From the IMG/VR virus record IMGVR_UViG_638341086_000010: a DNA stretch of 39,725 nt; one strand, given 5' to 3'. A program made the translations under genes and the position numbers. This document shows positions 1 through 39,725 of this stretch, piece after piece (position 1 is the stretch's first letter; every line of letters begins with the position of its first letter). A model generated the notes under the pieces. The model did not search any database. It worked only from the letters and a program-made list of their open reading frames with translations, and was not told the DNA's origin. This DNA comes from a virus (Duplodnaviria; Heunggongvirae; Uroviricota; Caudoviricetes).

Positions 1-229
1 TATAATAAACTTACTTTTTTATCATTTTTCCACTTTAACAACATTTTGCTCCACTTTTCCACGACCAAACAACTTGAAATCTGGTTAAAATAACACGCAA
101 CACTATTCTTCTTCCTTGAGTCCGCCCGGAACTCGAAAAACAAACCGAGTTAAGGCCATTTTTCACAAAATCGATTTTGGATCTCACCAAAATTACGGGG
201 TTGCATACGCATTCGTTTATTTTCGAACG

Positions 230-249
230 TGTACATACAAATATGTACA
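230..249. promoter_or_regulatory. Perfect palindrome TGTACATA-N4-TATGTACA about 70 bp upstream of the serine recombinase start; a further TATGTACA half-site at about 286-293. Candidate recombinase binding/crossover or operator site
   Basis: Read directly from sequence: 8-bp perfect inverted repeat with 4-bp spacer, plus a third half-site copy. Function is inferred only from position. Confidence 0.3.
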
Positions 250-318
250 AAAATAATCAAAATTATTTTCTGAGATGCATTATGATATGTACACCAATTT
301 CGTATCGAAGATCTCACT

Positions 319-909
319 ATGTCTCGAATTTATGCTTACTGTCGGGTATCAACTCTGGAACAAACAACCAAAAATCAACGTCGGGAAATCGAAAGTGCAG
401 GTTTTAACATCAAATCTCAGCAAATAATTGAAGAACAAATTAGCGGCTCAGCAGCAACCAGTGAGCGTCCTAGTTTTAACCAGTTGCTTGATCGACTGAA
501 AAGAGGTGATGCATTGATTGTCACAAAACTGGATCGCCTCGGTTGTAATCCAATGGATATCAGTAAAACGGTGGAACAACTGACCAAAGCAGGTATCAAA
601 GTGCATTGCTTAGCATTGGGGGGCGTTGACCTGACCAGTCCACCTGGAAAAATGATGATGCACGTAATTTCAGCAGTCGCTGAATTTGAGCGAGACCTTT
701 TACTTGAGCGTACTCATTCAGGGATATTAAGAGCACGGGGCGCAGGAAAGCGATTTGGTCGCCCACCTGTGTTAAATGATGAACAAATACAGAGGGTACT
801 AGAGCAAATTAAGTCAGGTATAAATATAAGTGACATTGCCCAAGAATTCAAAACCTCGCGGCAAACCATTTTAAGAGCTAAAGCAAAAAATCAGACACCT
901 GATATATAA
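319..909 (+). CDS. Small serine recombinase (resolvase/invertase family), 196 aa
   Basis: N-terminal YCRVSTLEQ motif with catalytic-serine context, 196 aa length and C-terminal HTH-like tail typical of resolvase/Pin-Hin-Gin family enzymes; ATG directly preceded by AT-rich leader. Invertase versus resolvase cannot be decided by eye. Confidence 0.8.
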
Positions 910-1006
910 AAATAATCTCGGTGTGAGATTCCTTACGTTTTCCAAGCCCCCCTTCCTAGCCTTAAATGGAAAGATACTTCTAATTATAGAATTTATATAT
1001 CTTACC

Positions 1007-1582
1007 CTACGGTAGGGCTGGCCATTCAATATCCGGTGCAGTTGATGTATCAACACGATTCAGCAACACCCGATACTTTTTCCAGGCTTCCAGCAACAAG
1101 GTTTCTTTCTCCGTTGCGATCTCCAGATCCACAGCATCCTGAAGCGGCGCTATATGCTCACTGGCTACCTGCATCAGGCTGTTTTTTGTTTCTTCCGCCT
1201 CCCGGATCCGGAACAGTTTTTCTGCTTCCGTATCCTTCACCCAGGCTGTGCCGTTCCACTTCTGAAACTCCCCTTCCGGGGATAACCAGGTGACATTTTC
1301 CGGTAATGAGCCGAGTTCAGAAATAAATAACGCGTCGCCGGAAGCCACGTCATAAACCGTTTTACCCCGATGATCTTCAACGAGATGCCACGATGACTCA
1401 TCACTGTTGAAAACAGCCACGAAACCAGCCGGAATATCTGGCGGTGCAATATCGGTACTGTTTGCTGGCAGACCTGTATGAGGCGGAATATATGCATCAC
1501 CTTCACCAATAAATTCATTAGTTCCGGACAGCAGATTATAAATTTTTATGGTCCGTGGTTGTTCACTCATTCTGAATGCCAT
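1007..1582 (-). CDS. tfa: Tail fiber assembly protein Tfa (lambda Tfa-like), 191 aa
   Basis: Translation [18 protein letters not shown]... matches lambda Tfa as recalled; start ATG overlaps stf stop by 1 nt (TAATG). Confidence 0.9.
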
Positions 1583-4500
1583 TATGCAAGCCTCACAATA
1601 TAGTTAAATGCGATGTTTTTGACGGTGTTTTCCGCGTTACCAGCAGCGTTAACGGTGATGGTGTGTCCATGTGAGCCAATCGCAACCGAGTGCGTATGAG
1701 CACCAATACCGACAGTATGTGCGTGAGCACCTGCAGATGCAGCTGTGCCGCTGACACTATGAGTGTGCGCTCCTGCAGCACTTGTATTCACACTGGCCGC
1801 AGACACTACCTTATGTACTGACCCATTTTGTGACCACTGGCTGACTGCTGATGCGCCTGTGACACTATGAGTATGGTTTCCGGCACTTGCGGCTGTACCG
1901 CTCACACTGTGCGTATGCGCCCCGATGTTATTCGTGGATTTAGTGCCGTAATCAAACGACGATGTGGTTTTCGTCCCCAAATCCGTACTGGATGCGCTGG
2001 CGCTGTGGGTGTGCGATTTAATGCCGTCCTGTTCCTGAGACAATACAGCCCGACCACTGGCAGGTTTGCCCTTAATCGTCCAGCCACGCATATCAGGGAT
2101 CACGCCTGACGGATAAGCGGCTGCAAGTTTCGGGTATGCAGATTTGTCAAAAGTCTGCCCCTGCATCAGGGCATAACCAGACGGAACGGTATCTGATGGC
2201 CACGGGATTGGTGCACCGACTGGATAAAACTCTGCAGGAGGATGAGCCGAGGTGTAAAGCTGCGCCCACGGCGACCAGTTTGCGTCGGTCGTATCCCGTC
2301 GTGAACGAATAAATGCCGGAGCATGAGCACCGCTTGTACCACTCCAGCCGATGAGTAACTCACCTTCGCCAACGGCTGTCATCCCTTTCAGGTGAATGAT
2401 ATTTCCATACGTTGTTGGATATCCGTTGTTATACACCTCGTATAACTCAAGACCTGCTGCCCCCTGCGTATTGTCTGTCAGCGCGGCTACCCGACCTTTT
2501 GAAGCCAGATTAACTGATGATACTGCTGTTCCACCTGACGGTAGCGCCCCGATCTCTGATGCCGTTGGCTTATTTCTGGAGTTATAGTCCCTTCGCCAGC
2601 CAGGTGAATAATCTGTTCCGTGATTAATATAGGTAAACTGGGCGTTGGTTGTTCCGCCACCGCTGGATGTGGTCGGAGTGGTAATGCGGATCGTCATCGC
2701 TGACTTTATCCCCATTACTTCAATGACAGCTCCGGCGAGATGAATATTACCGCAGCCAGTATCAGTAATGATTTTATTATTGCCATAAGACCAGGAACCC
2801 TTGCACATCCAGTATGGATGGTTAAATGCTCCCTGAGAATCCAGCCACTCGATAAACTGTGCAGTCGTCCAGTTTCCTGTTGTTGTGCTTACTGACCCAC
2901 CGAAGGCACGGCAGGCACCAATATTTTTCGTAAAGGTGTCTTTGCCAGGGATATCCGCACCGTTCTGATCTTTCTGCAGACGTTTCTCAGCATTGTCATT
3001 GGCTGCTTTTACTGCCTTTGGCGTTGCCGCCAGCGTTTCAGACGTGCTGTTGGTCGCGCTGCTTAGCTGGATTATCCCTTTCTGTGCTGTCGTTGCATCC
3101 TGTGCGGTGTATTTCCCGTTAGCCAGGTCATACGCGGCCTTAACGGCTTTTGGTGTTGCCGCCAGTGACTCGGAAGTGCTGTTAGTCGCACTACTGAGCT
3201 GTACTATCCCCTTTTTCGTCGTGCTCGCATCCTCAAGCGCCACGGCGGATGCAATATCCTCTGCCCGTTTTGCCGCTGTCTCAGCGCGCGTTGCTGCAGA
3301 TTCCGCCGTACTTTTGCTCTGAGCTGCTGCCTTCGCACTACCAGCAGCCTCTGTCGCCTTCGTGGATGCCGTCGTGGCGCTGCCCTTCGCTGCTGACGCC
3401 TGTCTGGTCGCCTCATCTTTTGAAGCAGACGCCGATGATGCCGATGACGCCGCCGAACTGGCGGACGATGCCGCTGCCGTTTTTGAGGATTCTGCACGGG
3501 TTTCCGACGCTTTCGCGTTCGTTTCGGATGTCTTCGCTGCGGAAGCTGACCTCGCTGCTGCCGTGGCCTGCTCAGTGGCTTCGCCAGCCTTTGTTGTGGC
3601 TGTTGAAGCGGATGATGCGGCGCTTTCTGCCGATTTTCCGGCGGCGGTGGCACTGGCTGAGGCCTGCCCGGCACTTGTTGACGCGGCACTGGCAGACGAC
3701 GCAGCCGCTGTTTTTGAGCCTGCCGCAGCTGAGGCGCTCTGTCCCGCTGCCGTCTCAGAAGACCTGGCGTTCGTCTCGGACGTTTTTGCCGCCTTCGCGG
3801 AATTTCCTGCCGCCGTTGCCGAGGAAGCTGCGCTACTGGCGCTCAAGGATGCGTTCGTTTCTGATGATTTCGCTGCCTCTTTTGAGGCCGCCGCATCCCG
3901 GGCTGAGGTGGCAGCTTCTGACGCTTTCGTGGTCGCGGTGGATGCAGAAGTGGCGGCTGATTGTTCTGACGCTGCGGCATTCGTTTCTGACGTTTTCGCC
4001 GCACCGGCACTGGTAGCTGCCACGCTTTTTGAGGACTCTGCAGCGGCAGCACTTTTTGAGGCTTCAGTGGCCTTTGTTGATGCCGTTCCTGCGCTGGAAG
4101 ACGCTGACTGAGCCGACGAAGCGGCCTGTCCGGCTGACGTGCTGGCTGCACGTGCTGAATCTGCAGCATCAGTCGCATGGGTTGCCGCCTCACGGGCAGA
4201 TGTGCTGGCATCGCCGGCTGACTTCTTCGCGGCTGCCGTGTTCTGTGCCACTACGGACGCGTTACGCGCCACCTCTTCCACCATCAGTTCAAAACGGCGC
4301 AGTGCCTCCGGACGGGCATCATCCTCCGTCATGGCACCGAGAAAATCATTCAGCGTACCGGGTTGAGAATCTTCATACACGGTGATGGTCCCGGCATGTG
4401 ACGGCGGGAATCCTTCCACCAACAGAATAACGCTGTACTGACCGTACTCAACGTCCATGCTGTAACGCCCGGCTTCATCCGGATTTTCTGAGGCCAGCGT

Positions 4501-4608
4501 GTTCACCACCACCGTGGTGCTGTTACGTTTTGCTTTCAGCTGGATTGTGCAGTTCTCTACCGGTTTTCCTGTGCCGTCTTTCAGTACACCTGAAATCTTT
4601 ACTGCCAT
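1582..4608 (-). CDS. stf: Side tail fiber protein Stf (lambda Stf-like), about 1008 aa
   Basis: N-terminus [26 protein letters not shown]... matches lambda Stf as recalled; long Ala/Ser/Thr-rich repeat region, Gly-rich region and His-rich C-terminal repeats ([15 protein letters not shown]). ATG at 4608 chosen over the upstream GTG at 4614 used by the ORF track. Confidence 0.9.
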
Positions 4609-4620
4609 ATTCACCCCACA

Positions 4621-4645
4621 AAAAAGCCCGCCTGAACCGGCGGGC
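4621..4645 (-). terminator. Rho-independent terminator downstream of lom (minus strand)
   Basis: On the minus strand GCCCGCC-GGTTCA-GGCGGGC followed by TTTTTT, sited between the lom stop and the stf start. Confidence 0.6.
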
Positions 4646-4672
4646 TGTCATAACACTGTGTTACCTGGCTAA

Positions 4673-5272
4673 TCAGAACTTATAACCGACACCCACGATG
4701 AAACCGTCAGTGCGCCAGTCGCCACTGCCGGAGCCTTCATAAGCAATATCAATGGCCACGGATTCGGTCGGGTTAAACTGCACGCCAGCCCCCCACGCCA
4801 GAGACGTGTTGCTGTGGCGACCGTCATCACTTCCGGTCAGCACGTCGTGCGTTTTCCCCTTGTTGTCAGTTACGCGGAGATAATCCCCGGAGAAAGTCGA
4901 CACACGGCTGTAAGCCATACCCGCCATCGCATACGCGCTGAACCATTCATTCACGCGCACAGACGGCCCCGCCATTACGCTGAACCAGCGGTTACGAACG
5001 GAATCTTCATGCCAGCGGGTATCGCTGTAACGGGTCAGCTGGCGATTCTTGTCTCCTGCATAGCTGAATGACGTCACCATACCCAGTGTGTCCGTAAACT
5101 CATAACGGTATTTCACGTTAATCCCGTTCAGATCATCGCTGCCGGGAACGTTCGTCGAGGCATGAAGATACCCCGCGCTCAGCGTGGCCTGCTGCTCAGA
5201 CGCCCATGCAGGCGCACCGGATACGGCCAGACAGATGGCTGCGGACAAAATGGCGGCATAAAGTTTACGCAT
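4673..5272 (-). CDS. lom: Outer membrane protein Lom (Ail/Lom family beta-barrel), 199 aa with signal peptide
   Basis: Translation MRKLYAAILSAAICLAVSGAPAWA... matches lambda Lom as recalled and ends in the aromatic residue (GYKF) typical of OMP beta-barrels; bracketed by terminators on both sides. Confidence 0.92.
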   Translation of the reverse strand: MRKLYAAILSAAICLAVSGAPAWASEQQATLSAGYLHASTNVPGSDDLNGINVKYRYEFTDTLGMVTSFSYAGDKNRQLTRYSDTRWHEDSVRNRWFSVMAGPSVRVNEWFSAYAMAGMAYSRVSTFSGDYLRVTDNKGKTHDVLTGSDDGRHSNTSLAWGAGVQFNPTESVAIDIAYEGSGSGDWRTDGFIVGVGYKF

Positions 5273-38363: not shown

Positions 38364-38706
38364 GGCCTGTCAGTTTCTTAAGATATCCAGACCAACCGCC
38401 ACCAACTGGATACGAACAGGCCGCCTACAGGCAACACGTAAAGATCCAACCAAGCCAAAATCTCCTTACCTCACAACACGGCAAGCCTGCATTGCGGCGC
38501 TTCAGTCTCCGCTGCATACTGTCCAGGTGAGCGCGGGTGATGGCATAACAGAGGAAAGAAAATGTCACTCTTCCGCAGAAATGAAATATGGTATGCCTCG
38601 TATTCGCTCCCGGGCGGGAAACGAATTAAGGAATCTCTTGGCACAAAGGACAAGCGGCAAGCTCAGGAGTTGCACGACAAGCGAAAAGCAGAACTCTGGC
38701 GAGTAG
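38335..38706 (+). CDS. xis: Excisionase-like DNA-binding protein (AlpA/Xis family); 124 aa as read, with a C-terminal extension that overlaps int
   Basis: GAGGT RBS; N-terminal 60 aa resemble winged-helix excisionases (…[26 protein letters not shown]…). The frame stays open for 145 nt into int, so the true 3-prime end is uncertain. Confidence 0.55.
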
Positions 38707-39725
38707 AAAAGCTAGGGGATTTACCTGATGTCACTTTTGAAGAGGCCTGCCTAAGATGGCTTGAGGAAAAAGCTGATAAAAAATCTCTCGATTCAGATAA
38801 AAGCCGGATTGAGTTCTGGCTTGAACATTTTGAGGGTATAAGGCTTAAAGATATCTCGGAGGCAAAGATTTACTCTGCTGTAAGCAGAATGCATAACAGA
38901 AAGACGAAAGAAATATGGAAACAGAAAGTTCAGGCCGCCATCAGGAAAGGTAAAGAACTGCCTGTTTATGAACCAAAGCCAGTATCAACTCAGACAAAGG
39001 CAAAGCATCTTGCCATGATAAAGGCCATTCTCCGTGCTGCAGAACGCGACTGGAAGTGGCTGGAAAAAGCGCCTGTCATCAAGATACCAGCGGTCAGAAA
39101 CAAGCGAGTCAGATGGCTGGAAAAGGAGGAAGCAAAACGCCTTATTGATGAGTGCCCCGAACCACTGAAATCTGTCGTCAAGTTTGCGCTGGCAACTGGT
39201 CTGAGAAAGTCGAACATCATAAATCTGGAATGGCAACAAATCGACATGCAGCGACGAGTTGCCTGGGTGAATCCAGAAGAGAGCAAATCAAACCGCGCCA
39301 TTGGTGTGGCGCTGAACGATACCGCCTGTAAAGTGTTGCGTGATCAAATAGGCAAGCATCACAAATGGGTGTTTGTACATACCAAGGCGGCTAAGCGAGC
39401 AGATGGAACATCAACGCCTGCGGTCAGGAAGATGCGCATCGACAGCAAGACATCATGGCTATCAGCTTGTCGTCGTGCAGGAATTGAAGATTTCCGTTTC
39501 CATGACCTCAGACACACCTGGGCAAGCTGGCTGATTCAGTCAGGCGTCCCATTATCAGTGCTTCAGGAAATGGGCGGATGGGAGTCCATAGAAATGGTTC
39601 GTAGGTATGCTCACCTTGCGCCTAATCATTTGACAGAGCATGCGAGGAAAATAGACGACATTTTTGGTGATAATGTCCCAAATATGTCCCACTCTGGAAT
39701 TATGGAGGATATAAAGAAGGCGTAA
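38562..39725 (+). CDS. intD: Tyrosine integrase (DLP12 IntD-type), 387 aa
   Basis: C-terminal catalytic motifs (…[11 protein letters not shown]… …[15 protein letters not shown]…); the whole translation matches the DLP12 integrase as recalled. The gene ends at the window edge, so the att site and target tRNA are outside the window. Confidence 0.92.

Follow-up and report, generated by a model that had tools for sequence, protein, structure and literature searches.

In this work we address the question of why a gene for a small serine recombinase lies beside the tail fibre genes of an Escherichia coli lambdoid prophage. The window, that is the whole stretch of DNA analysed (39,725 nucleotides; IMG/VR record IMGVR_UViG_638341086_000010), is a seemingly complete prophage of 39.7 kb, and its recombinase is an allele of pinQ and pinR, long-standing K-12 names that imply an invertase of the Pin type. 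A sequence-only reading of the locus had set two possibilities side by side: an invertase of the Pin/Gin type that inverts the fibre C-terminus and thereby switches host range, or a resolvase whose own res site would mark a separate module at the prophage edge. Our analyses favour the second, since we consider it likely that positions 117-952 represent a fossil, non-autonomous mini-transposon of the Tn3 family, 836 bp in length, which comprises left and right terminal inverted repeats (IR-L and IR-R), a res site and tnpR, and which has no transposase gene. The recombinase descends from the TnpR/res module of a Tn3-type mini-element, has no partner site with which to recombine, and has seen both site I of its res and a catalytic residue decay.

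Because the gene encodes a TnpR resolvase in a decayed Tn3-family mini-element, with a worn res site and a cysteine at the position of an essential arginine, the annotation is corrected and the lack of any known adjoining invertible segment is explained. A candidate host-range switch is removed, and doubt is cast on PinQ as the catalyst of a reported inversion that forms the base of a phage-defence mechanism described in 2025 (PMC12529663). The gene family and Tn3-derived non-autonomous elements are already known; in the literature searched, no link of pinQ or pinR to Tn3-family elements was found.

Descent of the recombinase and its upstream sites

The recombinase gene (319..909, plus strand) encodes 196 aa and lies just past the tail fibre assembly gene tfa on the opposite strand, as the sequence-only reading had described, such that the two reading frames converge. 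Its product has the Ser11 nucleophile and carries a Resolvase domain (Pfam PF00239, 6.5e-37) followed by a C-terminal HTH_7 domain (PF02796, 1.7e-11); an NCBIfam search returned only sub-threshold matches to Mpi, XisF and similar families, and the recombinase matched none of the PADLOC defence models. It is 84% identical at the amino acid level to E. coli K-12 PinQ (Qin, b1545) and PinR (Rac, b1374), which are also 196 aa in length. Searches with tblastn identified homologues on 1849 plasmids, mostly at 60-80% identity, and the relatives at 69-79% identity are TnpR resolvases of transposons and plasmids. Those at 73-75% lie approximately 160 bp from, and divergent to, a complete Tn3-family tnpA, in Shewanella pSbal02 (L088, ISSba14 family) and in a Klebsiella IncFIB plasmid (L089). 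Other relatives adjoin ParA/ParG or a ParE/RHH toxin-antitoxin pair, one resides with a complete res in an Arsenophonus phage-plasmid, and another, on pSCU-478-1 (L007), retains a 30-aa remnant of tnpA.

Clustering with transposon resolvases, which the sequence-only reading had held to count against an invertase, is what phylogenetic placement revealed. A neighbour-joining tree places the window protein, together with PinQ and PinR, inside the TnpR clade (bootstrap 100 for that clade minus its two most distant members), apart from Cin, Gin and PinE; the recognition helix differs little from that of the transposon relatives. Judged from its sequence, the recombinase is by descent a TnpR-type resolvase and not an invertase of the Gin/Pin type. 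The ISSba14-related resolvase of pSbal02 and that of the Klebsiella plasmid also carry upstream a homologous res, with subsites of 26, 32 and 19 bp, together with a TATAAT, to which the upstream region of the window is homologous; pSbal02 tnpR is then followed by a 38-bp terminal repeat, while the Klebsiella copy is without one. Both elements, however, have a full divergent tnpA, a site I that is intact and retains the GACCGG core, and Arg at the position of R71, none of which is present in the window. Among the family members there are also rare chimeric proteins (P0002 and P0005-P0008) that join a plasmid-type N-terminal part with Arg76 to a PinQ-type C-terminal part, and which may be either real recombinants between plasmid and prophage or assembly chimeras.

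The region upstream of the gene had drawn attention through a perfect 8-bp inverted repeat with a 4-nt loop and a further half-site, and both stand as described: the repeat reads TGTACATA (230-237)-CAAA-TATGTACA (242-249), and a third exact copy of TATGTACA occupies 286-293. Four copies of this 8-mer are present in the window, where 0.63 would be expected, and three of them fall within 64 bp; in addition, three of the nine TGTACA hexamers in the window lie in 230-293. Perfect 8-bp inverted repeats are themselves common, with 20 listed across the whole window for arms of at least 8 bp and loops of at most 10 nt, or about 15 independent ones after overlaps are merged. The palindrome cluster is real, but only the clustering goes beyond chance. 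We considered the fourth copy of the 8-mer, at 39374, as a partner half-site; it lies inside the tyrosine integrase gene (38562-39725) and was taken as chance. The palindrome is perfect in the window allele only, the common K-12-type alleles reading TATGCACA and TATGAACA at both positions.

A comparison with seven relatives offers an explanation for these repeats. All seven share a res layout upstream of the gene, consisting of site I, a spacer, site II, TATAAT and site III. Their site I spans 26 bp, TGT(A/C)C(G/A)AAA-N2GACCGG-TTTCG(G/T)ACA; the spacer between sites I and II is 14 bp throughout, although its sequence is not conserved; site II spans 32 bp in a 9+14+9 geometry with the same half-sites as site I; and site III, of approximately 19 bp, (N)GTACAnCC-N-TTTCGTACA, directly follows the invariant TATAAT. 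The upstream region of the window aligns with this res base for base and colinearly (all sites on the plus strand). A decayed site I, the former crossover site (204..229; CATACGCAT-TCGTTTAT-TTTCGAACG), aligns to the 26-bp site I of the relatives and keeps 12 of 18 half-site positions (left 5/9, right 7/9), its GACCGG core having been lost. The 14-bp spacer (230..243; TGTACATACAAATA) holds the left arm of the palindrome, an arm that varies among prophage alleles (TATACATA, TGCACATA). It is followed by a putative 32-bp site II (244..275; TGTACAAAA-ATAATCAAAATTAT-TTTCTGAGA), whose left half corresponds to the right arm of the palindrome, matches the family half-site at 9/9 positions, the one strict match anywhere in the window, and whose right half matches at 7/9. 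A second perfect inverted repeat, AAAATAAT-CAAA-ATTATTTT at 250-269, overlooked in the sequence-only reading, forms the symmetric centre of site II. Further downstream, TATGAT (281..286) aligns to the invariant TATAAT of the seven relatives and is predicted to be the -10 hexamer of the recombinase promoter; a scan for promoters yielded a weak match, TGTACA-N16-AATAAT, which did not exceed those obtained with shuffled sequences. A putative site III (288..306; TGTACACCA-A-TTTCGTATC) completes the array, its left half being the third half-site of the sequence-only reading and its right half matching at 7/9 positions in the window and 8/9 in K-12.

Because the window aligns to the res of its relatives in this manner, the palindrome is best described as the I-II spacer together with the left half of res site II; straddling a non-conserved spacer and one half of a subsite, it does not in itself constitute a recombination site. 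The relatives also provide an indication of where strand exchange takes place. The regions upstream of tnpR on pAPEC-O1-ColBM (L006) and pSCU-478-1 are near-identical to the right of site I and unrelated to its left, and a sample that stands for hundreds of plasmids loses its homology to the pAPEC unit at L006 3897, a single base short of the AC at the centre of site I. Since a break of plasmid homology at site I is the mark of resolvase crossover, site I of the relatives is taken to be a real crossover point. In these relatives, resolvase dimers would bind the three dyad-symmetric subsites upstream of the gene, of which sites II and III overlap the promoter, and strand exchange would occur at the centre of site I between two directly repeated copies of res.

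Relics of terminal repeats and a putative target duplication

In the relatives on pAPEC-O1-ColBM, pSCU-478-1 and pSbal02, an intact 38-bp inverted repeat, CTTAGCGTGGGATATTTTCCGTTTTCCAAGCGGACCCC, begins 8 nt after the tnpR stop codon. The repeat is of the canonical Tn3-family type, GGGG...ACGCTAAG when read inward, and the flanks of the three copies diverge immediately past the repeat end (CCCC). On pAPEC-O1-ColBM a left repeat lies 62 bp before site I, which delimits an 852-bp unit of IR-L, res, tnpR and IR-R with no transposase, and this full-length unit is found on approximately 140 plasmids.

Relics of both repeats are recognisable in the window. The IR-L relic (117..154, plus strand; TGAGTCCGCCCGGAACTCGAAAAACAAACCGAGTTAAG) matches the repeat of the intact relatives at 25/38 positions, is in register with the relatives in the upstream alignment, and agrees at 27/38 positions (hand count) with the aligned IR-L of pAPEC-O1-ColBM (GGGGTCAG...GTTAAG, L006 3786-3823). 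The IR-R relic (917..952, minus strand; CTCGGTGTGAGATTCCTTACGTTTTCCAAGCCCCCC) has suffered a 2-bp deletion and starts 7-8 nt after the stop codon of the recombinase gene. Decay has converted GGGG to TGAG on the left and ACGCTAAG to ACACCGAG on the right. A mismatch scan of the window with the intact repeat yielded only two matches of at least 23/38, both of them 25/38 and both at the homologous positions, whereas the chance expectation for a match of at least 25/38 in the 39.7-kb window is 0.01. Furthermore, the 5-bp direct repeat TTCCT abuts the outer end of IR-L (112..116) and, on the right, IR-R (953..957), a putative target-site duplication of the Tn3 type that directly flanks both relics in 75 of 75 related prophage loci from the viral collection. 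Tn3-family transposition generates a 5-bp target duplication. The suggestion that a resolvase with its own res might mark a separate module is thus borne out, in that the module takes the form of a Tn3-family mini-element with terminal repeats and a target duplication.

The pAPEC-O1-ColBM unit is the closest counterpart in architecture: it is colinear with 117-952 from IR-L to IR-R, and its protein is 79% identical. In that unit the repeats are 30/38 complementary, the half-sites are perfect and Arg76 is in place, whereas the window copy is decayed; conversely, the pAPEC copy, which adjoins a ParE/RHH pair, is without matching 5-bp flanks, while the window has TTCCT on both sides. On the same plasmid, a G+C-rich and highly structured-looking stretch (L006 3540-3785) is located between the RHH antitoxin gene and IR-L. 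No remnant of tnpA was detected by tblastn with the N-terminal ~780 aa of ISSba14 TnpA, either in window positions 1-5000 or in the surrounding 17-kb genomic locus, and the element is consequently classed as non-autonomous. In this respect it resembles TIMEs, which are likewise derivatives that lack a transposase and have Tn3-family repeats at their ends. TIMEs have 5-bp duplications on either side and are generally described as non-coding. The window element differs in that it retains res and the resolvase gene, and its repeats are too decayed for mobility to be expected.

We propose that, in a lambdoid phage ancestor, the element would have inserted in the interval from ydfK to the end of tfa, duplicating TTCCT, and would then have been inherited with the tail fibre region, including in the Qin and Rac prophages of K-12, where its gene is known as pinQ and pinR. 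The K-12 copies have the relics of the terminal repeats, the TTCCT flanks and Cys76 in common with the window.

State of the protein and competing explanations

Equivalents of most catalytic residues of Tn3 resolvase are present in the window protein (Y7, R9, S11 and R73 for Y6, R8, S10 and R68 of Tn3), and the Glu at the position of Tn3 D36 is also found in functional relatives. However, Cys76 (codon TGT, 544-546) aligns with Arg71 of the Tn3 and gamma-delta resolvases and with the Arg of the LGR motif of Gin. A single transition, CGT to TGT, separates it from every transposon and plasmid copy examined, and Arg occupies position 76 in 113 of 120 family representatives. Cys76 is shared by the 75 prophage loci without exception and by the large protein clusters P0001, P0003 and P0057 (374, 2148 and 1066 members). 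In Tn3 resolvase, the substitutions R71A and R71K abolish resolution in vivo and slow cleavage approximately 1000-fold (PMC2794168). The ratio dN/dS is 0.35-0.39 between prophage alleles compared with 0.06-0.08 among transposon and plasmid copies, which indicates that constraint on the prophage protein is relaxed, not absent.

The window holds one copy of res, with its site I degraded. Given this single copy, the degraded site I and the cysteine at the Arg71 position, we would expect neither local recombination nor tail fibre switching. Binding to sites II and III, on either side of its promoter, is what the protein most plausibly retains, and it may thereby repress its own expression.

Several observations weigh against this account or restrict it. 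A search for the empty site, reconstructed as a ydfK-TTCCT-tfa junction (expected ...CTTCTTCCTAGCC...), returned no spanning match in 5426 E. coli genomes and the phage collection; because no empty site was found, the insertion is taken to be old, and it is an event that we infer solely from the repeats and their flanking duplication rather than observe. Complementarity between the two relics is weak (~17/36 by hand count), and they can be recognised only via their intact homologues. The effect of replacing Arg by Cys is extrapolated from Tn3 resolvase, and the autoregulation that the recombinase probably exerts is proposed by analogy with Tn3 and gamma-delta. The reading frame remains intact in thousands of genomes with dN/dS below 1, such that some function has been retained. 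Finally, Kirigo et al. (2025) reported that inversion of the e14 P segment rises from ~30% to 88% when PinQ is overproduced and falls when pinQ is deleted (PMC12529663), effects which imply activity in trans.

These in vivo data on an 84%-identical protein, encompassing overproduction, deletion and quantitative PCR of inversion (PMC12529663), together with the conserved reading frame, raise the possibility that the window protein is a trans-acting invertase, exapted to invert an e14-type P segment elsewhere and so to generate an anti-phage chimeric fibre protein, as proposed for PinQ, whose identity to PinE is only 38%. We consider this unlikely, since that study reports neither recombination in vitro nor a catalytic-serine mutant nor a test of DNA binding, and deletion of pinE alone locks the e14 segment (PMC12529663); PinE is therefore needed, and the effect of PinQ may be indirect or a consequence of selection. 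In addition, the window contains no P segment, Cys occupies the Arg71 position, the pix half-sites TTCTCCCAAACC are unlike the family half-site TGT(A/C)C(G/A)AAA, and the recognition helix is almost that of the transposon relatives. Catalysis of e14 inversion by a PinQ-type protein is accordingly doubtful in view of the locked segment, the dissimilar half-sites and the nearly unchanged helix. About equally tentative is the idea that a resolvase deprived of its catalytic Arg and its crossover site has been kept for a new job, either as a DNA-binding regulator or as a modulator of PinE, through mixed tetramers or control of pinE. Were this the case, the published anti-phage effect of PinQ would be real but would not arise from catalysis by PinQ, and roughly half of E. 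coli genomes would carry, on a fossil transposon, an exapted and largely non-catalytic serine recombinase. A still-active resolvase, whose single res recombines with the res of incoming plasmids or Tn3-family transposons, fusing or resolving them, or which resolves dimers of the circular phage genome, appears considerably less probable. In its favour, little of sites II and III has been lost, 7/9 positions survive in the right half of site I, the Arsenophonus phage-plasmid relative has a complete res, and the rare chimeras combine plasmid-type and PinQ-type parts. However, the left half and core of site I are degraded, position 76 is Cys, homology between the window and Qin/Rac runs unbroken through site I with a mosaic boundary near 300 that reflects ordinary homologous exchange, and the chimeric proteins break inside the gene rather than at res.

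The explanation that the pin names would suggest, a local invertase of the Pin/Gin type that flips the fibre C-terminus together with tfa at the palindrome or another crossover site, is the least credible, and we regard it as extremely improbable. The recombinase adjoins stf and tfa, as recombinases do in Mu, P1 and e14, it bears the database label 'DNA invertase', and Gin is its best match among solved structures (100 bits, compared with 82 bits for gamma-delta resolvase). These structure-match scores are indecisive between invertase and resolvase; it is the close relatives that settle the class, and these act as resolvases, unlike Gin, Cin, Hin and PinE. The latter are small serine recombinases of similar size and the same domain order that adjoin phage tail fibre genes, as here, and Cin, Gin and PinE are 75-82% identical among themselves, whereas the window protein, placed outside their clade, shares only 36.6% identity with Cin, 37.0% with PinE and 34.8-36.2% with Gin. 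Invertases of this group also possess a Fis-dependent enhancer in the 5' part of the recombinase gene, which the annotation of P1 marks in cin, 26-bp inverted crossover sites and an alternative fibre module, the last two of which are missing from the window. A scan with the Gin/Cin/Pin/Hin consensus TTnTCnnAAACCnnGGTTTnnGAnAA (26 bp, 18 specified positions) gave best matches of 11/18 in positions 1-5000 and 13/18 in the whole window, a level that shuffled sequences also reach (11-13), whereas the positive controls scored 17/18 at each of the two e14 sites and 16/18 at P1 cixL; no pix 16-mer was found in the window within 3 mismatches. The inverted copy of the candidate site for which the sequence-only reading had proposed a search near stf and tfa is not there, as no second copy of the palindrome exists in the window or its 17-kb genomic context, nor, apart from the 8-mer at 39374, any further copy of its half-sites; moreover, in the 20-bp palindrome the arms are 5-10 bp away from the centre, a tighter spacing than that of the 26- and 32-bp family sites. 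The window has a single copy each of stf and tfa, encoded on the minus strand, and lacks any alternative fibre C-terminus or tfa in the opposite orientation; the genomic flank contains the only additional tfa fragment, which is in direct orientation. The 75 related prophage loci are all arranged in one and the same way, and no inversions within Qin or Rac were seen across E. coli genomes (Kirigo et al.; PMC12529663).

Prophage alleles and neighbouring genes

Matches to positions 1-1010 of the window occur in 2803 of 5426 complete E. coli genomes. The gene order, both in K-12 and in a genome that is 99.9% identical, is ynfT/ynaM, ydfK/ynaE and the recombinase, followed by the convergent tfa and stf. 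The window allele is nevertheless distinct from K-12 PinQ and PinR, its third half-site, like the palindrome, being perfect where that of K-12 is imperfect, and the K-12 copies reside in cryptic remnants. When compared with Qin of K-12 (L002), a block of 89-91% nucleotide identity extends from ~300 to ~1150 and takes in the recombinase coding sequence, IR-R and the tfa 3' end, with flanks that are 98-100% identical. The edges of this block do not coincide with the transposon ends, and it appears to be a homologous-recombination mosaic. The identity of 98-99% to Qin and Rac upstream of the gene, compared with 89.5% in the coding sequence, was also considered as a sign of regulatory constraint; this was rejected in favour of an ordinary recombination mosaic, because the highly similar block continues through ydfK and ynfT to -745 and resumes after ~1150. 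Similarly, one prophage locus (L031, ~1000-1010, equivalent to window 238-240) is interrupted at the exact centre of the palindrome, and we considered a site-specific crossover at this breakpoint; the interruption proved to be the insertion of an IS66-family element that ends in the terminal repeat GTAAGCGTACAGCC of the insertion sequence.

On its minus strand the window carries J, lom, stf (1582..4614) and tfa (1007..1582), with stf the upstream neighbour of tfa. The latter (Pfam Caudo_TAP, 3.6e-44) lies outside the element, whose end falls 54 bp beyond the tfa stop codon. In the genomic flank (genome NZ_CP148357.1, L001 6189-6401), a C-terminal fragment of tfa that is 82% identical to the tfa 3' end lies ~1.6-1.8 kb ahead of the start of the window, on the far side of a methyltransferase gene, ynfT and ydfK, which suggests an earlier replacement of the tail fibre module at the prophage end. 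An Rfam scan of positions 1-1100 returned a sole match, to IS009 within tfa; the full-length match (1041-1239, minus strand; 216 bits, gathering score 117) is wholly inside the gene, and this 'RNA family' may represent conserved tfa sequence. In the middle of the prophage, an IS3-family insertion sequence (25110-26323, plus strand) comprises overlapping reading frames of 108 and 296 aa and includes an ALIL frameshift pseudoknot at 25391-25507 (120 bits).

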